A stretch of DNA of 32,000 bases, taken from assembly GCA_016205145.1 (NCBI GenBank), contig JACQJH010000002.1, positions 60,001 to 92,000 of the forward strand. Reading direction: 5' to 3'. Position numbers and translations under genes: made by a program. Origin of the DNA: Candidatus Iainarchaeum sp. (GTDB lineage: Archaea; Iainarchaeota; Iainarchaeia; Iainarchaeales; JACQJH01). How positions within the stretch are numbered: the first letter of the stretch is position 1; each line of letters begins with the position of its first letter. Below the pieces are notes generated by a model. It saw only the letters and a program-made list of their open reading frames with translations, had not been told where the DNA came from and made no database searches. Positions 674-31,804 of this stretch are shown piece after piece.

Positions 674-736
674 GCTTACTCGGCGTTCTGCGATAGCAGA
701 ACGCCTTGGTTTCGAACCAGCCGGACGAAACCGGCT
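674..736 (-). repeat. Copy A of a modular two-hairpin element, followed by a T7 run
   Basis: Minus-strand read: AGCCGG-TTTCGT-CCGGCT GG TTCG AAACCAA GGCGTTCTGC-TATC-GCAGAACGCC GAGTAAGC TTTTTTT. It starts inside the stop codon of the small ORF 735..917. Related copies are at 2697-2767, 26744-26897 and 28342-28366. Confidence 0.8.
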
Positions 737-917
737 ATTTGCAGGCCGGGCAGACGCCTTTGACGTGCGCAAGCTTTGACACGCCGAACAGGCCCAAGGC
801 CGTGCCCGCGACAAGGTGGGCAGTGCTGACATCCAATGATTTCATGCCCATCAAAAGAAACGAAACGCCTGCCACAAGGACAAGAACGCCCATAACCAAT
901 CCACAGTTCCCTTTCAT
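735..917 (-). CDS. Small (60 aa) two-TM membrane protein with C-terminal CPAC
   Basis: ORF track 735..917. GGAGG lies about 8 nt upstream of the ATG, and a TATA-like ATCTTATAAC lies further upstream. Two hydrophobic segments. No family recognised. Confidence 0.5.
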   Translation of the reverse strand: MKGNCGLVMGVLVLVAGVSFLLMGMKSLDVSTAHLVAGTALGLFGVSKLAHVKGVCPACK

Positions 918-2770: not shown

Positions 2771-2845
2771 TGCTCCGACCGGGATTCGAACCCGGGTTAC
2801 CGGCTTGAAAGGCCAGTGTGCTTGGCCGGACTACACCATCGGAGC
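2771..2845 (-). tRNA. tRNA-Glu (anticodon UUC), no intron, CCA not encoded
   Basis: Reverse complement GCTCCGATGGTGTAGTCCGGCCAAGCACACTGGCCTTTCAAGCCGGTAACCCGGGTTCGAATCCCGGTCGGAGCA folds as a cloverleaf. It has a 7-bp acceptor, a TTCGAAT T-loop and anticodon loop CTTTCAA. Confidence 0.93.
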
Positions 2846-2976
2846 TTCTGCCTGTGCGCTTTTTTAATTGTTTTGCTTTAAAAAAACTTAATAGCAAGCA
2901 GGATTTTAATTGGATTCTGTTAAGACTAGTTCAATATTGAATTGTTTTTAAGGCTATCATTGGCTGGTGAGGTTTA

Positions 2977-3138
2977 ATGGCAAAGTTTGAGGTTGCTGTG
3001 GCAAGGCTTTTTGAGAACGTCTGGATCTGCATGAAATGCAATGCGCGCAATCGCGGCAGCGAGGGCAAGAAGCCTGACCGCTGCAGGAAATGCGGCAGCA
3101 TCAGGCTCAGGTTGAAGCATAAAACCAAGAAGGCTTGA
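2977..3138 (+). CDS. rpl40e: Ribosomal protein L40e (53 aa)
   Basis: Own translation; the ORF is below the track cutoff. MAKFEVAVARLFENVWICMKCNARNRGSEGKKPDRCRKCGSIRLRLKHKTKKA has the C4 zinc-ribbon pattern and length of archaeal L40e. GGTGAGG lies 6 nt upstream of the ATG. Confidence 0.85.
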   Translation: MAKFEVAVARLFENVWICMKCNARNRGSEGKKPDRCRKCGSIRLRLKHKTKKA

Positions 3139-3143
3139 ATGAA

Positions 3144-3962
3144 ATGGACATCGCCGGTTTTGTGAGGCTTGCAAGGCCAGTCAACTGCCTAATGGCATCC
3201 GTTGCGGTTCTGGCGGGCTTTGCCGTTTCATCCGGTTCTTTTTCCTTCGGAATGCCGGTTCTGCTTGCAATGGCGGCCGCGTTCCTGGTCTGCGCCGCGG
3301 GCCAGACGGTGAACGACTATTTTGACCACAAAATCGACGCGGTTCTGCATCCAGACAGGCCGATTCCGAGCGGCAACGTCAAGCATTATGACGCACTGAT
3401 CTTTGCCATGCTTTTGTTCATTGCAGGCAACTACCTTGCCGCGCAAATCAATTACATTGCGTTCGTGATCGCCGCGACGATTTCAGTGCTCCTGTTCTTT
3501 TACTCCGCATTCATGGAGAAATTCAAATACGTTGGCAACTGGGTCGTAGCGCTTGGGACTTCCCTGACTCTGGTTTTCGGCGCAACCATAGCCATGGACT
3601 TTTACGCGGTTTCATTCCTTGCCGCGCTTGCATTGTTCTCCAATGTCGGCAGGGAGATAACCAAGGACTTTGAGGACAGGGAAAAAGGCGAAACGGGGAA
3701 AATTACCTTGCCGAGGCTCATCGGAAAGAAAGCCAAGCTTGTTGTCCTGTCCCTGTTTTTCGCCGCAATTGCGTTGAGCTATTTTGTTTTCTTTGCGGGA
3801 ATTTTCGGCAACATTTTTTATCCTGCAATAGTTTCGCTTGCAAATCTGGCTTTCCTTTACGCGTTCCTGCTTCTCAAAAACGATTCGTTTGAAAAGGCGC
3901 AGAAATACTGCAAGCTCGGCATGGTTTTGGCCCTGGCGGCATTCTTTGCCGGCGCAATGTAG
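3144..3962 (+). CDS. UbiA-family prenyltransferase, probable digeranylgeranylglyceryl phosphate synthase
   Basis: NDYFDHKIDAVLHPDRPIPSG (first Asp-rich motif) and KDFEDRE (second motif). About 8 TM helices. The ATG at 3144 is preferred over the track TTG at 3135. Confidence 0.85.
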   Translation: MDIAGFVRLARPVNCLMASVAVLAGFAVSSGSFSFGMPVLLAMAAAFLVCAAGQTVNDYFDHKIDAVLHPDRPIPSGNVKHYDALIFAMLLFIAGNYLAAQINYIAFVIAATISVLLFFYSAFMEKFKYVGNWVVALGTSLTLVFGATIAMDFYAVSFLAALALFSNVGREITKDFEDREKGETGKITLPRLIGKKAKLVVLSLFFAAIALSYFVFFAGIFGNIFYPAIVSLANLAFLYAFLLLKNDSFEKAQKYCKLGMVLALAAFFAGAM

Positions 3963-23032: not shown

Positions 23033-23764
23033 ATGAGTTCTGTGACGCGGTTGTCGGAACAGCGCAGGCTGCATGACCTTAAAGAGAACACTGTTAGGGG
23101 CGCCATTCTCAGGCAGCTCATTCTCGGCGGGCAGGATGGAATTGTCAACACTTTGGGCATACTCCTGGGCGTTGCAACCGCGACAAGCGAGGCAAGGCTC
23201 GTCATAATAACCGGCATTGCCGCGGCTTTCGCGGAAAGCATTTCCATGGCGGCCGTTGCCTACACTTCGGCAAAGGCGCAGAAAGAATACTATCACAGGC
23301 AGCGCGAACGCGAAGCCTTTGAAATAGAAAGGTTTCCGGACATAGAGCGCGAGGAAGTCGAGCACATCTACAGGAAAAAGGGCTTTGACGGAAAAATCCT
23401 GAATGACATAGTAAGGCACATCACAAGCGACAGGCAGAGGTGGCTTGACGAAATGATGCTTAACGAGCTGGAGCTCACTGAAACTGATTTCGACCACCCT
23501 GCAAGGGAAGGCGTTGTAGTGGGATTCTCGTCGCTTGCCGGCGCGTTCGTGCCCCTGCTTCCATTCATTTTCCTGCCGGTCCAGGCGGCAATAGTACTGT
23601 CCGTGGCTTTCTCGGCATTGGTGCTGTTCTTTGCCGGCGCGTTCAAGACAAAGCAGACAATCGGCAACTGGGCGAAAGGCGGCATGGAACTCGCAATTGT
23701 CGGCATTTGCGCGGCAATCGCGGGCTACATCATCGGCATGCTTTTGGGCGCCAGCGGAATTTAA
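23033..23764 (+). CDS. VIT1/CCC1-family iron/manganese transporter
   Basis: LGGQDGIVNTLGILLGVA, AFAESISMAAVAYTS, a central acidic metal-binding helix region (EIERFPDIEREEVEHIY), and C-terminal TM helices. Confidence 0.85.
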   Translation: MSSVTRLSEQRRLHDLKENTVRGAILRQLILGGQDGIVNTLGILLGVATATSEARLVIITGIAAAFAESISMAAVAYTSAKAQKEYYHRQREREAFEIERFPDIEREEVEHIYRKKGFDGKILNDIVRHITSDRQRWLDEMMLNELELTETDFDHPAREGVVVGFSSLAGAFVPLLPFIFLPVQAAIVLSVAFSALVLFFAGAFKTKQTIGNWAKGGMELAIVGICAAIAGYIIGMLLGASGI

Positions 23765-23829
23765 AGCAGGCGGCTTTTGCGGCCTCCCGCCTAACCGGCT
23801 TAAAAAAGGTTCCAGACACAATATTTTCC

Positions 23830-24006
23830 ATGGCAATGAGGATTTTCACCGCGGCAGCGGTGATAGCCTTGCTGGCATTCCTCTGGCTTTATTACAATTA
23901 CGGTCTGCCGGTGCTTTTGGCCGGCTTAATCCTGGCGCTCCTGGCGGGATTCGTTGGAGTAGGGGCATTGAAAAAAGACAACGCCCAGAAAAGGAAATGG
24001 CAATAG
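23830..24006 (+). CDS. Hypothetical 58-aa two-TM membrane protein
   Basis: Internal ATG of track ORF 23707..24006: MAMRIFTAAAVIALLAFLWLYYNYGLPVLLAGLILALLAGFVGVGALKK. CTTAAAAAAGG lies about 25 nt upstream. Confidence 0.4.
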   Translation: MAMRIFTAAAVIALLAFLWLYYNYGLPVLLAGLILALLAGFVGVGALKKDNAQKRKWQ

Positions 24007-24022
24007 CATTCCCTTTCCCGGT

Positions 24023-24271
24023 TCACGCCAAAATTTTCTGTTTTTCAGCTGCCTGCTCTTTTTCAAGGCAGTCGAGTTCCTCAATCAGGTAAAAGAGAAA
24101 ATCAAAGCCGGTTTCAGCGCTGATTTTATCCAATTCAAGGCCTTCATCCAGGCCGCGCTCAAGGCAATACGTCCTGAAAATTTCGTTCACGGCCCAGTCA
24201 AGGACCGGGTCATCCAGCGGAATGTTTCCGTCCTGCAGTCTTACGACTAACCGTTTAAGCTCCTGTCTCAT
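24023..24271 (-). CDS. Hypothetical acidic cytosolic protein (82 aa)
   Basis: ATG 24271 with GGGGTGAG 4-5 nt upstream. No family recognised. Confidence 0.45.
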   Translation of the reverse strand: MRQELKRLVVRLQDGNIPLDDPVLDWAVNEIFRTYCLERGLDEGLELDKISAETGFDFLFYLIEELDCLEKEQAAEKQKILA

Positions 24272-24475
24272 CAACTCACCCCAGTACACGGGACTTTCTT
24301 CCAAGAAAAAATCCCGGGAAAAATTTCCGCGAAACGCGGAAAAAACTGAATTTCCACAAAAAAACGTGGAAGTAAATGAGAAAACAGAAAAGGCTTTTAT
24401 AACTACTTGGGGTTTACATAATGATTTTCGTTTTCCAAAAAAATCCGCGCATAAAACATGCAGCCGGCTTTTTTA

Positions 24476-24661
24476 TCACAGGAGACCGGAAGTGAAATGC
24501 AGTATTATGCCGCCGAAAAACAGGCCAAGGTACAGGATAACAGCGCCCGGCTGGGTCAGGAAAACGAATGCGGAGCCCATGAACAGGAGGATTGACACCA
24601 TAGCGTGCTTGTCAGCCTCTTCGAAACGAAGGAAGAACCAGACGCTCGGATCCTCTTCCAT
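24476..24661 (-). CDS. Hypothetical 61-aa membrane protein
   Basis: ORF track. Two hydrophobic helices. A T7 run follows the stop. Promoter geometry is unclear. Confidence 0.35.
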   Translation of the reverse strand: MEEDPSVWFFLRFEEADKHAMVSILLFMGSAFVFLTQPGAVILYLGLFFGGIILHFTSGLL

Positions 24662-24745
24662 GCCACTATTATATATACAAGAGAAATTGGTTTAAGCTTT
24701 TCGCTTTAATGCATTTCCGCAAAAAACAGCCCCGAAGGCAAAAAC

Positions 24746-25120
24746 TCACAAAACCTCGAAATCCCTGGTGCCGCCAAGCTTTTTCATGCGCTCGTTCAGG
24801 GCCTTCTGCCGCTCGGGGGTTGCGGCCGGCGCATCCCTGTTCCGGCCGGTCAAAAACTCCGCATCCGAGGACGACTGCCTCGATCTTGCGGACCGCCTCG
24901 CGGCGTTGATGACGTCCATGGAATCATAGTTCATGTTCCCTGAATAACCGCATTTGGCGCAAACCAGTATGCCGTTGGACATTTTCATGTCAAGGCTGAC
25001 GCACTGCGGGCAATACCTGAATTTCAATCCAACACCAGAAAAATAATTCCAATAAAACCAATAAAAGGCTTGCGCCACGCAAAAATCCGGCCGAATCGTT
25101 TTGTTTAAATTCGTTTCCAT
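24746..25120 (-). CDS. Hypothetical zinc-ribbon protein (CPQC..x14..CAKCG); start uncertain
   Basis: Four-Cys ribbon YCPQCVSLDMKMSNGILVCAKCGY. ATG 25120 lies only 14 nt from the divergent GGR start. Confidence 0.45.
   Translation of the reverse strand: METNLNKTIRPDFCVAQAFYWFYWNYFSGVGLKFRYCPQCVSLDMKMSNGILVCAKCGYSGNMNYDSMDVINAARRSARSRQSSSDAEFLTGRNRDAPAATPERQKALNERMKKLGGTRDFEVL
25103..25111 (+). promoter_or_regulatory. TATA box (GTTTAAATT) for the geranylgeranyl reductase gene
   Basis: Centred about 28 nt upstream of ATG 25135, which is leaderless geometry. It lies inside the annotated 5' end of the divergent zinc-ribbon ORF. Confidence 0.45.
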
Positions 25121-25134
25121 GACATTTTTTACCA

Positions 25135-26358
25135 ATGGAGACCGATTCTTTCGACGCAATCGTTGTCGGCGCCGGCCCCGGCGGAAGCAGCTGCGCCGCA
25201 CTGCTTGGAAAACAGGGCTTCAATGTCCTGTTGCTTGAAAAATCAAAATACCCGCGCGACAAGATCTGCGGCGACGCGATTTCAGGCAAATCAATGTCCG
25301 TGCTGCGCGATCTCGGCCTTGAAAGCGAAGTCAGAAAACTGCCGCACGGAAAAACGCATGGCGTGGTTTTTTCCTCGCCGAAAAAGGACGTCGTGCAGAT
25401 TCCGTTCGGAAGGGACGGGAAACGCGTCGAGGGCGTGGTGTGCAGGAGAATGTTTTTCGACAACCTCGTGTTCGGCACAGCCAAAAAATACGCGCACGCA
25501 ATCGAAGAGTTCATGGTCACTGAAATCATTCAGGAAAACGGTTTTGTTGTCGGAGTGAAAGGCACGGATTTGAAGTCAAAAAAGGCCATGGAATTCAGGG
25601 CAAAAGTCGTGATCGGGGCTGACGGCGCGCAGTCAGTCGTGGCAAAAAAGCTCGGCCTCGCGGAACAACAAGACAAGCACCATTGCACCGCGCTCAGGGC
25701 ATACTATTCCGGCATCGAAGGCATGTCAGACAACATCGAACTGCATTTCATCGATTCCGTGCTTCCGGGATATTTCTGGATTTTTCCGCTTGAAAACGGC
25801 AACGCGAACGTTGGAGTCGGGGTTGTCACGGCGGAAATGAAAAAAAGGAACATAAATCTCAAACAGGCAATGTTTAACGCCATTGAAAACGACAGCCTGC
25901 TGAAAGACAGGTTCAGGAACGCCAAAATCGAGGGCGACATCAAGGGGTGGACCCTGCCTTTCGGCTCAACCAGGCGGAAAGCGCATGGCAACGGCTTCGT
26001 GCTCATAGGCGACGCGGCCTCGCTCATCGACCCGTTTTCCGGGGAAGGCATCGGCAACGCAATGCATTCCGGAAGGCTGGCTGCGCGCATTGTCGGAGAG
26101 GCAATCAAGGCAAACAATGTTTCGGAAGAATTCTTGAAGGAATACGAGGACACCTTGTGGAATGAAATCGGAACCGAACTCAAAAACAGCTACAACCTGC
26201 AGCGCATCGGCAACATCAAGCCGATCCTCAACTTTGTCATCCACAAGGCCGCAACCAAAAAGGAAGTGCAGGAACTCATTTCAGGCATGCTCTCCAATGA
26301 AGAAGCCAAGCGGGAATTCTTCTCGCCGCTGTTTTACCTCAAACTGCTTCTGCCATGA
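25135..26358 (+). CDS. Geranylgeranyl reductase family flavoprotein (probable digeranylgeranylglycerophospholipid reductase)
   Basis: FDAIVVGAGPGGSSCAALLGKQGFNVLLLEK..RDKICGDAIS, later GDAASLIDPFSGEGIGNAM. 407 aa. Confidence 0.9.
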   Translation: METDSFDAIVVGAGPGGSSCAALLGKQGFNVLLLEKSKYPRDKICGDAISGKSMSVLRDLGLESEVRKLPHGKTHGVVFSSPKKDVVQIPFGRDGKRVEGVVCRRMFFDNLVFGTAKKYAHAIEEFMVTEIIQENGFVVGVKGTDLKSKKAMEFRAKVVIGADGAQSVVAKKLGLAEQQDKHHCTALRAYYSGIEGMSDNIELHFIDSVLPGYFWIFPLENGNANVGVGVVTAEMKKRNINLKQAMFNAIENDSLLKDRFRNAKIEGDIKGWTLPFGSTRRKAHGNGFVLIGDAASLIDPFSGEGIGNAMHSGRLAARIVGEAIKANNVSEEFLKEYEDTLWNEIGTELKNSYNLQRIGNIKPILNFVIHKAATKKEVQELISGMLSNEEAKREFFSPLFYLKLLLP

Positions 26359-26516
26359 ACGTCATGCCGGCAGAGAGGCTTCTTTTTAAATTTGTTTTAA
26401 TAGTCAAATAACCTATAGACTGCATGCGTTGCAGATGCCGGTTTGTTGCGAGCGCAGCGAGCCAGCCCGATGAAGCGAAGCGGAATCGGGCGCGTACCCG
26501 GCGGACGCGACGCCGT

Positions 26517-26743
26517 GCGGGGGTGGCGGAGTGGTCTAACGCGGCAGCCTGCTAAGACCCTTTTTCTTTCTTTGCGAAGAAAGAAAAAGTGTTCCGTTGC
26601 GAAATCAAAGATTTCGCGACGCGACGCAAAACCGAAAGGTTTTGCATCGTACCCCAAAAAGAAAGCCTTTCTTTTTGCGGAATAGAATGTTGCAGCAAGC
26701 TGTTTCCCGAAAGGGAGCGCGGGTTCGAATCCCGTCCCCCGCG
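26517..26743 (+). tRNA. tRNA-Ser (anticodon GCU) with a ~143-nt canonical-position intron (about 26555-26697)
   Basis: Exons are GCGGGGGTGGCGGAGTGGTCTAACGCGGCAGCCTGCTA and AGCTGTTTCCCGAAAGGGAGCGCGGGTTCGAATCCCGTCCCCCGCG. They give a 7-bp acceptor, a long variable arm (TCCC-GAAA-GGGA) and a TTCGAAT T-loop. Anticodon-loop CUGC pairs with intron-terminal GCAG to form the 4-bp core of a bulge-helix-bulge motif. Confidence 0.88.
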
Positions 26744-26897
26744 AGCCGTCACGCTCGGCTGGTGCGTGCACTATGCTCGTTTCACTCGCATAGCGCTGCG
26801 CGCTGTTGCGCGAAGCCGCCACAGCCGGCTGGTCTGAGCGCCATGCTTGGCATGGCCGAAACCAAGGCCTTTCACTGTTGTGAAAGGCCGAGTAAGC
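26744..26897 (+). repeat. Copy C (expanded) of the two-hairpin element, forming the tRNA-Ser trailer
   Basis: AGCCG-TCACGCT-CGGCT GG TGCG, then about 90 nt of extra GC-rich hairpins (CTATGC..GCATAG; GCCATGC-TTG-GCATGGC), then CG AAACCAA GGCCTTTCAC-TGTT-GTGAAAGGCC GAGTAAGC (26857-26897). Confidence 0.8.
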
Positions 26898-26912
26898 AGA
26901 CAAAAAAAAGGT

Positions 26913-27524
26913 TCACTTGCTTGCCTGCGCCGTTCTTTTTCTTCTGGCAATGAAGCCAGCTATTTGCAGGATTATAACGATGCCCGCAAGCAACAGCAAG
27001 GCGATTTCGGCATAGTTCAATGTTTTCGCCTGCGCGGTCCACGGCAGGCCGTTGGCAACCTGCACGAAGTGCGCGAGAATGAGTATGAACGCAATGTAAA
27101 CCAAGCGGTGCAGGCGCTTCCAGTTTTTTCCCATGACGCGCATTGCCCAATCGGTTGACGTCAAAGCCATGGCAAAGATTATGAAAAACGCGGGAATCGC
27201 GATTGTGAGCTGGGGCATCGTGCTAAGCAGGGCAAAATCGAAGTTGAAGTAAAGCATGAGCACTAGCAGGTAATGAGCCGCCATGAAAATGAAGGCGGAA
27301 ACGCCGACCGCCCTTCTCGGCTCGAAAAGCTGTGCAAACGTTTTAGGCCAAAGCGTTACAAGCGGCCCTATCATGAGCGAAACGCATAGAAGGAAGAATC
27401 CGCCCAGGCCCAAAGTCCTTATTATCTGGGTTGCGGGCGACGGCCCCGGAAGGAAGGCGTTGTAAAACGCCAAAAGCGCGATTCCTGCCACGATTATGAG
27501 CCACATTTCGCTTGAACGCTGCAT
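26913..27524 (-). CDS. Ferric-reductase-like transmembrane (MsrQ/YedZ-like) heme-binding membrane protein
   Basis: Six TM helices with conserved His in helices 3 and 5 (FIFMAAHYLL; ILILAHFVQV), and the R..G..AF pattern of the Ferric_reduct domain. The start is ATG 27524 or 27506. Confidence 0.55.
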   Translation of the reverse strand: MQRSSEMWLIIVAGIALLAFYNAFLPGPSPATQIIRTLGLGGFFLLCVSLMIGPLVTLWPKTFAQLFEPRRAVGVSAFIFMAAHYLLVLMLYFNFDFALLSTMPQLTIAIPAFFIIFAMALTSTDWAMRVMGKNWKRLHRLVYIAFILILAHFVQVANGLPWTAQAKTLNYAEIALLLLAGIVIILQIAGFIARRKRTAQASK

Positions 27525-27655
27525 GATTTTGCCTTAAATGGAATAGCACAAAGCGGTTTTTATTTTTATTCCCGAGCCCAAAAACGCATGCCCGCGCTTT
27601 TTTCCCGGCAACACCTTTTTTAACCAGAAAAGCCGTTTTATGTAGAGGGGTTTTT

Positions 27656-28078
27656 TTGGGACTGCTTGACGTTCTCGAACTCAAGGGCAGAAAGCCGAAA
27701 GACATATGCGTTCCGGAGCACGCGAAAAAGCGGCTTGCCGAGCAGGCGAAAGCCGAGGCAAGAGAGCTTGTCGCAATCGCATCGGAGAAGCGCGCAGAGG
27801 AGAAAAAGAAAAAGCCCGAATTCTTCGACGACATCGCGCGCTTTGAAGTCGAATCGTTCTACCGCACCCCGAAAGCGTTTTTTGTAATGGGCACATGCCT
27901 TTCCGGAAAAATAAGCAAAAAATCGGTTCTCAGGCGCGGCAGCAGAAACTTAAAGCTGAAAGACGTGAAAGCCGGGTTCTTCAAGGGAAAAAAGCATCTT
28001 ACAAGATGGGACAAGGGAACGATCCAGTTCGAAGAGCCGATGCCGCTGTATTCGGGCGACATACTCAAATTCTGGTGA
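27656..28078 (+). CDS. Hypothetical protein with a charged N-terminus and a possible EF-Tu domain-II-like beta-barrel C-terminus
   Basis: 140-aa ORF with a TTG start and GAGGGG 6 nt upstream. The C-terminal FFVMGTCLSGKISKKSVLRRGSRNLKLKDVK..GTIQFEE..YSGDILKF loosely follows the translation-factor domain II pattern. Confidence 0.4.
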   Translation: MGLLDVLELKGRKPKDICVPEHAKKRLAEQAKAEARELVAIASEKRAEEKKKKPEFFDDIARFEVESFYRTPKAFFVMGTCLSGKISKKSVLRRGSRNLKLKDVKAGFFKGKKHLTRWDKGTIQFEEPMPLYSGDILKFW

Positions 28079-28148
28079 AAACGCAAAAACGCCAAGGCCA
28101 TGGCACGGCCCGGAAAAAACCGGCTGAAAGCATTCACCAAAAGCCAAA

Positions 28149-28158
28149 TTTATTTAAA
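28149..28158 (+). promoter_or_regulatory. TATA box (TTTATTTAAA) for tRNA-Leu
   Basis: About 30-35 nt upstream of the tRNA 5' end, implying a short leader. Confidence 0.5.
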
Positions 28159-28190
28159 TTGTCTCCCCCAAAATTGTTCTTTGCTTGCAT

Positions 28191-28340
28191 GCAGGGGTAG
28201 CGAAGTGGTTAAACGCGCCAGACTCAAGAAACCTTTTTTCTTTGGAAAAGAAAAAAGCTTTGCCAAAAAAGAAAGGCAAAAAAAGGTTTGAGCAATCTGG
28301 TGGCTTAGTGCCTTCGGGGGTTCGAATCCTCCCCCCTGCA
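28191..28340 (+). tRNA. tRNA-Leu (anticodon CAA) with a ~66-nt canonical-position intron (about 28229-28294)
   Basis: Exons are GCAGGGGTAGCGAAGTGGTTAAACGCGCCAGACTCAAG and ATCTGGTGGCTTAGTGCCTTCGGGGGTTCGAATCCTCCCCCCTGCA. They give a long variable arm and a TTCGAAT T-loop. CUCAA in the anticodon loop pairs with intron-terminal UUGAG (BHB core). Confidence 0.88.
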
Positions 28341-28341
28341 A

Positions 28342-28366
28342 AGCCGGTTTCGTCCGGCTGGTTCGA
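28342..28366 (+). repeat. Copy D (hairpin-1 module) of the element; exact 25-nt inverted-orientation match to 712-736
   Basis: AGCCGGTTTCGTCCGGCTGGTTCGA starts 2 nt after the tRNA-Leu discriminator. It is followed by a different hairpin (GGGTATT..AATACCC) and GAGAGTAA-A7. Confidence 0.85.
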
Positions 28367-28443
28367 CGACGGGTATTTCGCTTTTGCTCAATACCCATCT
28401 GCTTTTGAGAGTAAAAAAATGGCTGCATTCTTGCTAGCCCGGA

Positions 28444-29439
28444 CTACTTTTTCATCCACGCGATTATTTTGTCCGCCAGGCCGGAATCGTTTGCCAGCAT
28501 CTGCGTTCCGTGGCCGGCTTTTTCAAGGTTTATGAGTTCGGTGTTTTTCGGCGCGCCTGCCGCAATCTTCTGGCTTGAATCGTAGGAATACTTGTCGTCG
28601 GCGCTTGAAACAAGCAGGACTTTCGTCATGCCTTTCTGGCTGTTCATGGAACTCACCATGCCGCCGCTGACAGTCAGGCCATGGTAACTTTCTCCCGCGG
28701 ACAATAGGACGACTTTTTCGACTTCTGGGTTGCTTCTCGCGAAGTTGATGCCTGCATTAGCGCCGATGCTTGCGCCGGCAACGATTATGCCGTTGTTTGA
28801 AAGCTTGTCCTTTGTGCCGAAAAGGAAGTCTCTCGCAGACTTCTGGTCCTGCGTCAGCAATTGCCAGTCATCGTCAAGGAAGGCCTTGTAGGTTATTATG
28901 GAACCGTTCTGGATTTTGCTTTCGCCATGGCCCCTGAAATCAATTGCCAGGACATTATAGCCGGCATCCAGAAGCTTTGGAATGAAATTGTCCCAGACGT
29001 GCCTGTCGTTTCCGAGTTCGTGAAGCAGCAGAACGGTTTTGGCGCCGGCGCCGGAAAAATAAAAGTCTCCAACTATTGTCACGTTGTCGAATGTCCTGAA
29101 CGAAACCTTTTCAGGCTGAACGGCGGGAGTTTCGGTTTGCTGGGCGTTTCCGGAATCGCCAGACGTGCCGTCACCGGAGACTTCAGAATTCACGTCGTTT
29201 GTTTGCGTGTTGTCCTGGCTGCCGGTTCCGACTGCCGCATCAGCGTCATCTGTTTGGCTGCCGGCTTCGCCGGAAATTTCCGTGCCCGGCTGCTGTGCAT
29301 TGCCTCCGGTGTTTTCTGCCGCGCCGATGCCTGGCGCAGGCTCATTGGCCTGCGGTTTTTCCTGCTGCTGTGAAACGCAGCCTGCGGCAAGCGCAAGCAT
29401 GACAAACAACATTGCCATGGCAAAAAAAGCATTTTTCAT
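28444..29439 (-). CDS. Secreted lipoprotein alpha/beta-hydrolase
   Basis: Signal peptide with lipobox LAAGC. About 90 aa of low-complexity Q/T/D/G-rich linker. Then LLLHELG, DFRGHGES and nucleophile elbow GASIGA, with a C-terminal GHG. ATG 29439 has GGTGG 6 nt upstream. Confidence 0.8.
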   Translation of the reverse strand: MKNAFFAMAMLFVMLALAAGCVSQQQEKPQANEPAPGIGAAENTGGNAQQPGTEISGEAGSQTDDADAAVGTGSQDNTQTNDVNSEVSGDGTSGDSGNAQQTETPAVQPEKVSFRTFDNVTIVGDFYFSGAGAKTVLLLHELGNDRHVWDNFIPKLLDAGYNVLAIDFRGHGESKIQNGSIITYKAFLDDDWQLLTQDQKSARDFLFGTKDKLSNNGIIVAGASIGANAGINFARSNPEVEKVVLLSAGESYHGLTVSGGMVSSMNSQKGMTKVLLVSSADDKYSYDSSQKIAAGAPKNTELINLEKAGHGTQMLANDSGLADKIIAWMKK

Positions 29440-29499
29440 TTCCAACCACCGCCAAAAACAAAACGCAAATCCCAGATAATGGAAAAGCGTTTTCTGCTT

Positions 29500-30690
29500 T
29501 TAAAGCATATGCCCCATTTTTTTTTCCTTTGTTTCCAGGTATTTTTCGTTGAACTGCGTTGGCTTGGTCGTCAGGGGAACCCTTTCCGTCACTTTCAGGC
29601 CGTAGCCTTCAAGCGCAACCATTTTTTTCGGATTGTTTGTCATGAGCCGGATTGTTGAAAGGCCGAGCTTTGCCAGCACCTGCGCGCCCAAACCGTATTC
29701 GCGCAAATCCATCGGAAAGCCAAGGGCCTTGTTCGCTTCAATGGTGTCAAGGCCGTTGTCCTGCAAATGGTATGCCCGGATCTTGTTCATTAAACCAATG
29801 CCCCTGCCTTCGTGCCGCGGAATGTAAAGTATGACCCCCTTGCCTTCTTTTTCGACAAGCCGCATGGCATTCTCAAGCTGTTCCCTGCAGTCACACCTGC
29901 TGCTCCCGAAAACGTCGCCCGTCAGGCAGCCGGAATGCACTCTCACCAGGACGTTTTTTTTGCCCCTCACGTCGCCTTTCACCAGGGCAATGAATTCCTC
30001 GCCGACCGCACTCGCAGTGAAACCGGTTATCCTGAAATTTCCGAAGCGCGTCGGCAGGTTGGCCGAATCGACTTTTTCGACAAGCGATTCGCGTTTGAGC
30101 CTGAACTGGATGAGGTCTTTCAGCATCATGATTTTTATGCCATGCTTGGCCGCGAACTTTTCAAGGTCCGGCAGCCTTGCCATTTCCCCATCCGGGCGGA
30201 TTATTTCGCAGATGACCGCGGCCTCGCCCAGCTTTGCAAGCCGCATCAAATCGGTTGCGGCTTCGGTGTGGCCGGCCCTCTGCAAAACCCCGCCTTGTTT
30301 CGCAATCAGCGGAAACATGTGCCCCGGCTTTGTCAGGTCCCGGCTGGAAGCGTTGCCGTTCACGAAAACGCGCACTGTTTCCGCGCGGTCATGCGCGGAA
30401 ATGCCTGTCGTGATGCCATAGGCCGCGTCAACGGATTCAGTGAAATTGGTTTTCATTTTATCCGAGTTTTTGGGCACGGCGTGCAGGTCAAACTTTTTGG
30501 CGAGGGCTCCGGAAACGGGAATGCATACCAGTCCCTTTCCGTGGGAAATCATGAAATTTATCCTGTCCGCGCTGACCTTTTCGCCTGCAAGGACAAGGTC
30601 GCCTTCGTTTTCCCTGGCCTCGTCGTCAACGACTATGACGAATTTTCCGGATTTCAGGTCGCGGATCGCCTGCTCGACAGAACAAAACAT
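29500..30690 (-). CDS. ribBA: Bifunctional 3,4-dihydroxy-2-butanone-4-phosphate synthase / GTP cyclohydrolase II
   Basis: [18 protein letters not shown] (RibB), and [24 protein letters not shown] plus [14 protein letters not shown] (RibA zinc and GTP motifs). 396 aa. Confidence 0.93.
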
Positions 30691-30841
30691 TTTTCCACCA
30701 AAAAAACGCTTGCTTTAAGAGAAGAACTGGAAAAAAGCTTTTAAAGAACACGCTGGGCACATAAAATGTATCTGGCTGCATTAAGCGGACGGAAGCAAAA
30801 TCAACCCATGCAATCCACTGGTCAAAAATAAAAATTGCCGG

Positions 30842-31804
30842 CTATTTCAGGTATTTTGCGTAAACGGCAAAAAACCTGTCAAAGGTTTTTTTGTATTTCT
30901 CCAGAAAAAAGCGTTCCAGGTTTTCGGAGTAACCGTTCTGGAAATCTTCAAGACAGTTTATATATGAAAGCCGCTGGGTTTTTCTGATAATGAGCGGAGG
31001 ATAACCGTTGTTAACCAAAATCGTGTTTATGATGAAACGCCCAACCCGCCCGTTCCCGTCAGCAAACGGGTGTATTCGCTCGAATTTGCCATGAAACAAG
31101 GCCGCCATTTTCAACGGGTGGGTCTTGGTTATTGCCTTGCCATACCATTCAATCAGCAGACCCATCTCTTCTTTGACTTTTTCTGGCGGAGTGAGTTTCA
31201 CCCTTGAGCCGACTATTTCATTCGGAAACTGCTTATAGCCAAGCCGCGGGTCAATGTTTTCCATCAGCAGTTTGTGCATGCTGACTATGTCCTTTTCGCG
31301 GACCTTGAATTTCTTTGATAGGATTTTCTCAACAACTTTCCTTGAGTTTCTTGTTTCATATATTTCCCTCAGGTCCTTGTTTTCAACCGACCTGTTCTCA
31401 AACATCACTATCGCAACATCCTTCAGTGTGAGAGAGCTTCCCTCGATTGCGTTTGACTCATAAGTGAAGTTTGCCGTAAACCTATCAAAAACGTCCCTCA
31501 ACTGCTCCTTTGAAAACCCATTTATCAGGCGCTTGTAATCAACCCGTATGGCTTCAACCCTTCTGACCTGTAGTTCCGGGAAGACAGAATCCGTGCCAAA
31601 TGCTTTGACGGCAAAACTTGCCGCAAGACTTTTTTCTTTCTGCAGGAAATAGTCTGCATGCTCACGCTCGAGTTCCTTCAGTGGCCTGTTGTCATTGCCT
31701 ATGAGCTTTTGGATTGTCGTTACAGTGCCATCCGGCAAACGCACGGATTTGACCAGATAACAGTATGTCCCGCCGGAAATCTTTTTCCTGGAAATGTAAA
31801 CCAT
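30842..31804 (-). CDS. Fic-domain protein (probable AMP transferase) with an N-terminal inhibitory motif
   Basis: Fic motif HPFADGNGRVGR, and upstream SNAIEG matching the (S/T)xxxE(G/N) auto-inhibition helix. The gene is visibly more AT-rich than its neighbours. Confidence 0.88.
   Translation of the reverse strand: MVYISRKKISGGTYCYLVKSVRLPDGTVTTIQKLIGNDNRPLKELEREHADYFLQKEKSLAASFAVKAFGTDSVFPELQVRRVEAIRVDYKRLINGFSKEQLRDVFDRFTANFTYESNAIEGSSLTLKDVAIVMFENRSVENKDLREIYETRNSRKVVEKILSKKFKVREKDIVSMHKLLMENIDPRLGYKQFPNEIVGSRVKLTPPEKVKEEMGLLIEWYGKAITKTHPLKMAALFHGKFERIHPFADGNGRVGRFIINTILVNNGYPPLIIRKTQRLSYINCLEDFQNGYSENLERFFLEKYKKTFDRFFAVYAKYLK

Follow-up and report, generated by a model that had tools for sequence, protein, structure and literature searches.

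What accounts for a serine tRNA gene in which a tRNA of only 84 nt is accompanied by some 400 nt of additional sequence? The gene, tRNA-Ser(GCU), lies on the plus strand of a 32,000-nt stretch of contig JACQJH010000002.1 (positions 60,001 to 92,000; Candidatus Iainarchaeum sp.), to which we refer as the window. The original prediction had described a leader of about 100 nt, a 143-nt intron and a 154-nt trailer at this locus, and had likened the complementary leader and trailer to the processing stems of archaeal rRNAs. In the explanation that we favour, and hold at about even confidence, this is a functional tRNA-Ser gene with a bulge-helix-bulge (BHB) intron; its leader and trailer are long because they are built of a lineage-specific structured repeat of about 66 nt. 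The trailer copy is found inverted as the leader, and the leader-trailer complementarity would therefore stem from inverted duplication or gene conversion at the DNA level.

The tRNA model of Rfam matched positions 26517-26743 with 39.2 bits and an insertion of about 145 nt. A scripted BHB search gave a single fully paired solution at the anticodon arm, at position (26549, 26692), where AGC-CUGC-UAA-GAC pairs with GUU-GCAG-CAA-GCU. Its 4-bp central helix (CUGC/GCAG) is bordered by the 3-nt bulges UAA and CAA, and both flanking helices are paired at 3 of 3 positions. This hBHBh' motif sets a 143-nt intron (26555-26697) at position 37/38, between a 5′ exon at 26517-26554 and a 3′ exon at 26698-26743; the latter carries the long variable arm and a discriminator G, with the CCA end not encoded. 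When joined, the exons were recognised by ARAGORN as an 84-nt tRNA-Ser(gct) with a class II fold and a cloverleaf with a standard 7-nt anticodon loop. The lengths proposed for tRNA and intron were thus confirmed by Rfam, the BHB search and ARAGORN on the spliced exons, and the locus is a genuine intron-bearing tRNA gene with a canonical BHB intron whose splicing in vivo is predicted. The 37/38 site, the two 3-nt bulges, the 4-bp helix and the class II tRNA-Ser formed by the exons are shared with other archaeal tRNA introns at the canonical position; the intron differs from them in its unusual length and in its four near-perfect hairpins (fold z −7.5 against shuffles, GC 42%). It also differs in holding no C/D-box small RNA (sRNA), as the whole tRNA-Ser transcript has no C box and a single CUGA, located in the trailer.

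The trailer (26744-26897) had been seen as an expanded copy of a repeated element with about 90 nt of extra hairpins. The repeat is present: a covariance model of the family described below matched 26836-26897 with 53.7 bits (E 3e-10), inside a copy at 26823-26897 (plus strand) that has a good 3′ half and matches the family motifs exactly (CGAAACCAAGG, hairpin B GGCCUUUCAC/GUGAAAGGCC and the tail CCGAGUAAGC). The supposed extra hairpins proved to belong to another, degenerate copy in front of it (26744-26822, plus strand). This first copy retains the hairpin-A-like AGCCG/CGGCU followed by GG (GGCUGG) and has additional hairpins; of the conserved motifs in loop, linker and tail nothing is left, and the model found in it only an 8.3-bit hairpin-B-like fragment (26795-26816). 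As the 154 nt are colinear with two clean tandem copies in the corresponding trailer of a closely related population (contig L004, below), the first copy with the first one there, the trailer is, judged by its sequence, a tandem dimer of the repeat.

The leader (26416-26516, plus strand) is a degenerate inverted copy of the first ~100 nt of its own trailer. It is GC-rich (66%, with a local peak of 74%, compared with 62% in the trailer and 51% in the whole window), and both leader and trailer fold better than shuffles (z −2.4 and −2.6, respectively). The three leader hairpins that had been proposed, CTGCA/TGCAG, CCCGAT/ATCGGG and CGCGT/ACGCG, can be read in the sequence at 26420-26434, 26466-26490 and 26491-26509. 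Aligned with the trailer, the reverse complement of the leader gave a match of ~100 nt that begins 3-4 nt from the tRNA ends and includes 67 Watson-Crick and 8 G·U pairs in 103 columns. Its score was 50, against 31 ± 5 for dinucleotide shuffles (z 3.6, ranging from 3.6 to 5.4 across runs), and was reached by 1 in 300 shuffles; alignment in direct orientation stayed at chance level (z 1.3). The complementarity runs in nested order, as had been claimed, and is above chance. Two word pairs on which the claim was built, GCGCAGCG (26452-26459) with CGCTGCGC (26794-26801) and CCAGCC (26462-26467) with GGCTGG (26757-26762), exist, each representing one of several possible registers. The leader aligns on the element frame of the repeat, and neither in the window nor in the related population has the leader copy retained the motifs that are invariant in the repeat.

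That population, here called strain B, is represented by the metagenome contigs L003, L004 and L027. Its nucleotide identity to the window is 90.5% in the geranylgeranyl reductase (GGR) gene and 85.9% in a kinase gene, and third codon positions differ at 21-24%. In L004 the site downstream of GGR that holds tRNA-Ser(GCU) in the window is occupied by tRNA-Ser(GGA) (2916-3081). The 82-nt intron of this gene is homologous, while its 70-nt leader has another sequence and other genes lie downstream. Its trailer consists of two tandem clean copies of the repeat, and its leader corresponds, inverted, to the first of these copies, beginning with base one on either side (z 4.9, a value that no shuffle of 300 reached); on the minus strand this leader was weakly matched by the covariance model (15.7 bits, E 0.08). 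The related locus has flanks that match each other, whereas the flank sequences themselves are not conserved between the window and L004, its closest relative. In both loci the leader fits its own trailer far better than it fits generic copies of the repeat (z 0.2-2.5), and the leader of the window does not match the trailer of strain B (z 1.0). At nine other tRNA loci, seven of which have the repeat, no leader-trailer relationship was found (z −1.1 to 1.4). The pairing potential between leader and trailer is therefore real and, in the sequences compared, specific to the tRNA-Ser loci. The two loci are not independent evidence, because they are paralogues with acceptor, D arm, intron and architecture in common. 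Beyond strain B, three GGR relatives of ~60% identity (L018, L020 and L021) have neither a tRNA nor the repeat downstream, the repeat having been sought in 21 kb around GGR, and so offer no deeper comparison of the locus.

The repeat unit of about 66 nt comprises hairpin A (6 bp, loop UUUCGK), a short linker, the motif CGAAACYAAGG, hairpin B (10 bp with a loop of 4-5 nt) and the tail CCGAGUARGC. Both CGAAACYAAGG and CCGAGUARGC are invariant in an alignment of eight copies, taken from the window (674-739 and 2704-2770) and from L004, L010, L013, L014 and L016. The covariance model recovered four copies in the window as well as copies in L004 (two), L010/L017, L013, L014, L016 and L027 at 75-90 bits; true copies scored 54-90 bits, and otherwise nothing rose above noise in ~58 kb. 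Besides the trailer of tRNA-Ser, the window has a full copy at 674-739 on the minus strand (89 bits), which abuts the stop codon of a 60-aa open reading frame (ORF) and is followed by T7, and another at 2704-2770 on the minus strand (77.7 bits), which directly follows tRNA-Glu (2771-2845, minus strand) and is followed by T6. A partly decayed copy at 28339-28402 on the plus strand (27.8 bits) directly follows tRNA-Leu(CAA); its hairpin A does not differ from the one at 674-739, and the remainder has diverged. The repeat follows a tRNA at eight loci: Glu (in the two strains), Ser(GCU), Ser(GGA), Leu(CAA), Pro(UGG) (L010/L017), Gln (L013) and Lys (L014). In 8 of 10 repeat loci it starts 0-4 nt past the discriminator, on the strand of the tRNA, although the tRNA 3′ ends are unrelated. 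A T-run usually comes after the repeat; it lies at a distance of 0-13 nt in four copies, namely 674-739 and those at tRNA-Glu, in L013 and in L014.

Both sides have changed in 11 of the 16 stem pairs, and 95% of the stem cells are paired; none of 500 shuffles reached this value, and slid registers gave 26-48%. RNAalifold independently returned hairpins A and B, together with a 3-bp helix closing hairpin B. Between the window and strain B (L027), the copy at tRNA-Glu is identical at 66 of 66 nt, with one extra loop base, where ~14 differences would be expected at a neutral rate of ~22%. The repeat looks functional, because it is conserved, covaries and has a fixed position after tRNAs. We also noted that the 115 nt upstream of tRNA-Glu (2846-2960 on the minus strand; 2076-2190 in L027) are 96.5% identical in the two strains, compared with 82-86% for the flanking genes; the whole tRNA-Glu region, with promoter, tRNA and repeat, would be either strongly constrained or recently exchanged.

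No known family could be assigned to the repeat. Rfam searches of all four window copies, at the gathering threshold and with E up to 1, returned nothing besides tRNA and noise, and the consensus contains no C/D boxes, no ACA box and no pseudouridylation pocket. Readings as a C/D box RNA, an H/ACA RNA or a K-turn were rejected on the consensus; a T-loop (GGUUCGAAACC) was rejected as well, for its positions 54 and 55 vary between copies. A pseudoknot between the loop UUUCG and the linker CGAAA is sterically plausible and, as all 5 pairs are invariant, is neither supported nor refuted by covariation. In 7 of the 8 copies, hairpin A is more stable than the alternative helix GGUUUCG/CGAAACC. A pattern scan of one genome per species gave five matches, all from Alphaproteobacteria, which equals the number expected by chance; the present lineage is not among the species representatives. 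The same scan of metagenome contigs gave five true repeat loci and three chance matches in coding DNA (L011, L012 and L015).

How far the tRNA-Ser transcript would extend depends on its promoter. Counted from the tRNA start, the nearest A/T-rich 8-mers are those at −136 to −106, and none occurs between −105 and −1, whereas tRNA-Leu and tRNA-Glu of the same window have a like box at −39 to −32. The closest A/T-rich block, the TATA-like box TTTTAAAT, is taken as the tRNA-Ser promoter; it spans 26384-26391 on the plus strand, one base from the position first given for it (26385-26392). The box, and a block CTATA(A)GACTGCATG around the predicted start, are conserved with the same spacing in L004. 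Since the nearest box is at least 106 nt upstream, a box-to-start spacing as in tRNA-Leu and tRNA-Glu leads to a leader of ~100 nt, with transcription most likely starting at about 26414-26418. The GC-rich leader deduced from the only TATA-like box is thereby upheld, with a predicted start. On the plus strand after the trailer there is no T-run before 26933-26944.

In the explanation that we favour, transcription would begin from this sole available box ~100 nt upstream of the tRNA, RNase P would cut at +1 and RNase Z after the discriminator, and the splicing endonuclease and ligase would take out the 143-nt BHB intron. The repeat, which has its normal place directly 3′ of a tRNA and in the same orientation, would be co-transcribed, and RNase Z would set it free as a small RNA, in the manner of dicistronic tRNA-sRNA precursors. 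In the case of tRNA-Ser, the trailer contains two tandem copies, the first decayed, and the leader is a decayed inverted copy of that trailer, which would have been either duplicated recently or kept alike by local gene conversion. The long imperfect stem into which the primary transcript could fold would be a tolerated by-product and not a selected, BHB-bearing processing helix. There is a precedent in Nanoarchaeum equitans, another DPANN archaeon, where a C/D-box sRNA lies immediately downstream of tRNA-Val and acquires its 5′ end by RNase Z (PMC3491384). As in this tRNA-Val-sRNA8 unit and in plant tRNA-snoRNA precursors, the repeat adjoins the 3′ end of a tRNA on the strand of that tRNA, lacks its own promoter and precedes a terminator, and its 5′ end would arise when RNase Z cleaves the tRNA. 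It differs from them in having no C/D or H/ACA boxes and no Rfam family, and in being a putative stable RNA.

Several observations weigh against this explanation. In the window, ~55 leader-trailer pairs are expected in the ensemble, and 57 occur in the minimum free energy (MFE) structure of 26415-26903. That each leader fits its own trailer is also what selection for pairing would give, and both known tRNA-Ser paralogues keep the inverted arrangement, which no other tRNA has. The repeat occurs at two loci without an adjoining tRNA (674-739 and L016). Moreover, wherever a stem cell of the eight copies departs from Watson-Crick pairing by a single transition, the mismatch on the transcribed strand is C·A and never G·U, which would not be expected of an RNA folded on that strand. 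These cells are the column pair 42-54 in hairpin B (four copies), the pair 10-17 in L016 and the pair 33-62 of the closing helix (3 of 8). The observations on pairing bear on an alternative that we consider unlikely, namely that the leader-trailer helix is a functional long-range stem, cut either by the splicing endonuclease, acting on a relaxed BHB, or by some other nuclease specific for double strands, which would yield a short-flanked and possibly circular pre-tRNA-Ser. Here it counts that the complementarity is locus-specific and kept in both paralogues despite their different sequences. The transcript ends could also pair: GCAG at 26896-26899 (plus strand) may pair with CUGC (26420-26423) at the predicted 5′ end, a short pairing whose equivalent in L004 is CUGCAU/AUGCAG, just after the last repeat, with a pair probability of ~0.9 at both loci. 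Only one BHB-like motif has a homologous place in the two tRNA-Ser loci (26492-26504 with 26755-26767 in the window; 2890-2902 with 3095-3107 in L004), and it is weak, its central helix containing a C·C mismatch. The micrarchaeal splicing endonuclease is reportedly broad in substrate specificity (PMC3239211). Although the folding that had been suggested as a check did show the long-range pairs, the energy gained by leader-trailer pairing over separate folds (−10.9 kcal/mol) equals that of shuffled leaders (−10.3 ± 4.0). The proposed search for BHB motifs in the helix found 17 candidates against 14.2 ± 4.9 in shuffles, none of them convincing in register in both strains, and relaxed rules gave dozens in this GC-rich sequence. 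Transitions between the reverse-complemented leader and the trailer comprise 11 G·U and 8 A·C (8:4 and 3:4), with no bias toward wobble pairs, in addition to 18 transversions and 20 gap columns, and ~30% of the columns are mismatched or gapped. These three results, the energy, the BHB count and the lack of a G·U bias, argue against a selected helix. In addition, each arm consists of hairpins whose folding would come first as the transcript is made, the number of long-range pairs expected for L004 is only ~22, with local hairpins dominating beside the tRNA, and the two loci are paralogues. The likeness to archaeal 16S and 23S rRNA processing stems, and to the leader-trailer BHB of permuted tRNAs, accordingly holds for the architecture, a long nested inverted repeat around a stable RNA with transcript ends that can pair; these measures of selection do not bear it out, the arms are hairpin arrays from a dispersed repeat, and the gene is contiguous, neither permuted nor split. 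The split tRNA halves of Nanoarchaeum and Caldivirga likewise place GC-rich complementary sequence beside tRNA exons, as here in a DPANN archaeon, but the two flanks of tRNA-Ser are parts of a single complete gene, whose tRNA is assembled without them.

The repeat could, on the other hand, be selfish DNA, that is, a MITE-, REP- or BOX-like mobile or recombinogenic element with no RNA function, and the unit CTGCAT-inverted copy-tRNA-Ser-direct copies-ATGCAG a cassette moved or swapped between sites; we regard this as unlikely, to much the same degree as the processing stem. The bacterial REP/BIME, BOX, Correia/NEMIS and ERIC elements and the archaeal SscA are small structured repeats or repeated structured RNAs. 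The repeat resembles them as a multi-copy hairpin unit in the range of ~40-150 nt at gene 3′ ends, and in being modular, arranged in tandem or inverted pairs and, presumably, co-transcribed with its neighbours. Its tandem, inverted and decayed copies, the copies away from tRNAs, the breaks of short-read contigs at repeat copies (as expected for multi-copy sequence) and the different tRNA-Ser isoacceptors, flanks and downstream genes found at one site in two strains would all fit mobility, as would the short terminal inverted words CTGCAT/ATGCAG (4-6 nt) that bound the tRNA-Ser unit. The C·A-only mismatches would suit constraint on the opposite strand, where they are G·U, or on single-stranded DNA; the MFE is equal for sense and antisense (−304.5 and −304.8) and does not discriminate the strand. 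Unlike the bacterial elements, the repeat is archaeal and sense-oriented at the exact tRNA 3′ end, has invariant loop and linker motifs beside covarying stems, and is accompanied by no visible RAYT or transposase; of the window ORFs, the 8 that were scanned (3′ third, 23033-31804) had no match to a transposase family. Its orientation is always that of the upstream gene, and as the tRNA 3′ ends that precede it by 0-4 nt are unrelated, there is no sequence target for insertion. The flanks read show no target-site duplication, and the perfect conservation at tRNA-Glu against ~22% neutral divergence also speaks against a selfish element. Neither the 21 kb around GGR in the three relatives nor viral contigs contain a copy, 44 loose-pattern matches in the latter all failing the covariance model. 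Likeness to IS200/IS605- or REP-type insertions, integron attC sites or CRISPR repeats was rejected, as there is no conserved target word, array or nearby recombinase and the internal palindrome is misplaced. Finally, it is highly improbable that the leader is transcribed apart from tRNA-Ser, the tRNA having a close, unrecognised promoter or the GC-rich 100 nt being a separate sRNA gene or the 3′ untranslated region of GGR. The start site is predicted, TTTTAAAT overlaps T-runs that are the probable terminator of GGR, and the leader folds better than shuffles. These points have to be set against the empty interval from −105 to −1, when tRNA-Leu and tRNA-Glu have their box at −39 to −32, and against the spacing and the start block shared with L004. 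Nor did the leader give an Rfam match with E below 1, and it no longer has the conserved repeat motifs.

What is combined at this locus are known kinds of elements, a BHB-intron tRNA, a structured intergenic repeat and a putative tRNA-sRNA dicistron, and the most useful result is the repeat family in tRNA trailers. The seemingly superfluous 400 nt around tRNA-Ser reflect a conserved, covarying, tRNA-linked repeat that is absent from Rfam, the RNA database searched; it is a candidate new RNA module associated with tRNAs in archaea whose genomes are very small and whose intergenic bases are all expected to be under pressure. A bolder interpretation, which we consider distinctly unlikely, is that the repeat represents a previously undescribed class of structured sRNAs of DPANN archaea, forming the RNase Z-freed 3′ half of tRNA-sRNA precursors, and that at tRNA-Ser the antisense leader copy pairs with it in a regulated or nuclease-processed stem, giving an rRNA-like tRNA maturation, possibly via a circular intermediate. 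In any case, a tRNA-Ser precursor that is able to form an rRNA-like stem offers a natural case in which to ask whether nucleases act outside introns, be it the broad-specificity endonuclease or others. These points are of interest for archaeal RNA processing and for the evolution of DPANN genomes.

The GGR gene (25135-26358, plus strand) sits upstream of tRNA-Ser(GCU), and its named relatives are nearly all from Candidatus Micrarchaeota, at ~60% identity. The organism is an uncultivated DPANN archaeon; its metagenome-assembled genome (MAG) bears the label Candidatus Diapherotrites, whereas the nearest relatives of its proteins are Micrarchaeota. Downstream, and convergent with tRNA-Ser, a ferric-reductase-like gene (26913-27524, minus strand) encodes a protein identical to MBI4053095.1, which that MAG carries on a 637-kb contig; the T8 run at 26902-26909 (minus strand), 3 nt past the stop codon of this gene, is its terminator. 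A 168-aa ORF with a TTG start (26397-26903, minus strand) has exactly the coordinates under which the tRNA-Ser locus was first described. It was rejected as a gene, since it has no Pfam match and is antisense to the tRNA, and is regarded as an artefact of ORF listing.

The difference in isoacceptor, GCU versus GGA, at one site in close strains indicates a probable replacement or rearrangement there, and the locus is of value as a document of such isoacceptor replacement. The two tRNAs have an identical acceptor stem and D arm, with compensatory differences in the anticodon stem, variable arm and T stem. The next gene after tRNA-Ser is tRNA-Leu(GAG) in L004 and the ferric-reductase-like gene in the window.

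The second intron-bearing tRNA of the window, tRNA-Leu(CAA) (28191-28340, plus strand), has a canonical BHB intron of 66 nt (28229-28294) with the central helix CUCA/UGAG. Standard tRNA finders miss or mis-splice both genes: in its default mode ARAGORN overlooked the two Rfam matches with long insertions (26517-26743 and 28191-28340), and with introns allowed it miscalled tRNA-Leu(CAA) as Val(cac). We rejected its call for tRNA-Ser on the raw sequence, with anticodon AGA and a 133-nt intron, and preferred the splice sites defined by the BHB, as these also agree with those of L004. The first intron hairpin, with polypyrimidine and polypurine arms (CCUUUUUCUUUCUUUG...AAGAAAGAAAAAG), is common to tRNA-Ser(GCU) (26555-26590), tRNA-Leu(CAA) (28229-28260) and tRNA-Ser(GGA) (2954-2990 in L004), which suggests that the three introns may form a family of related introns. 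The tRNA-Ser intron of the window is ~60 nt longer than its homologue in L004, the extra part being two more perfect hairpins.

A few further observations concern the surroundings of the repeat. The copy at 674-739 is preceded by CCUGCAAAU-AGCCGG (737-760, minus strand), which resembles the junction of the tRNA-Leu 3′ end with its repeat, CCUGCA-AAGCCGG (28333-28348, plus strand); it could be the remnant of a tRNA 3′ end carried along with the repeat, or a chance match (8 nt). At the start of L014 (26-127) there is another intron-bearing tRNA, with no repeat after it. In L010, two tRNA-Pro genes are separated by a GC-rich structured spacer of 270 nt (3140-3413, z −3.5) with a multi-branch fold closed by CCGGCUGG/CCAGCCGG. 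This spacer matched neither Rfam at the gathering threshold nor the model of the repeat, and could represent a further RNA yet to be annotated or a long leader belonging to tRNA-Pro(GGG).

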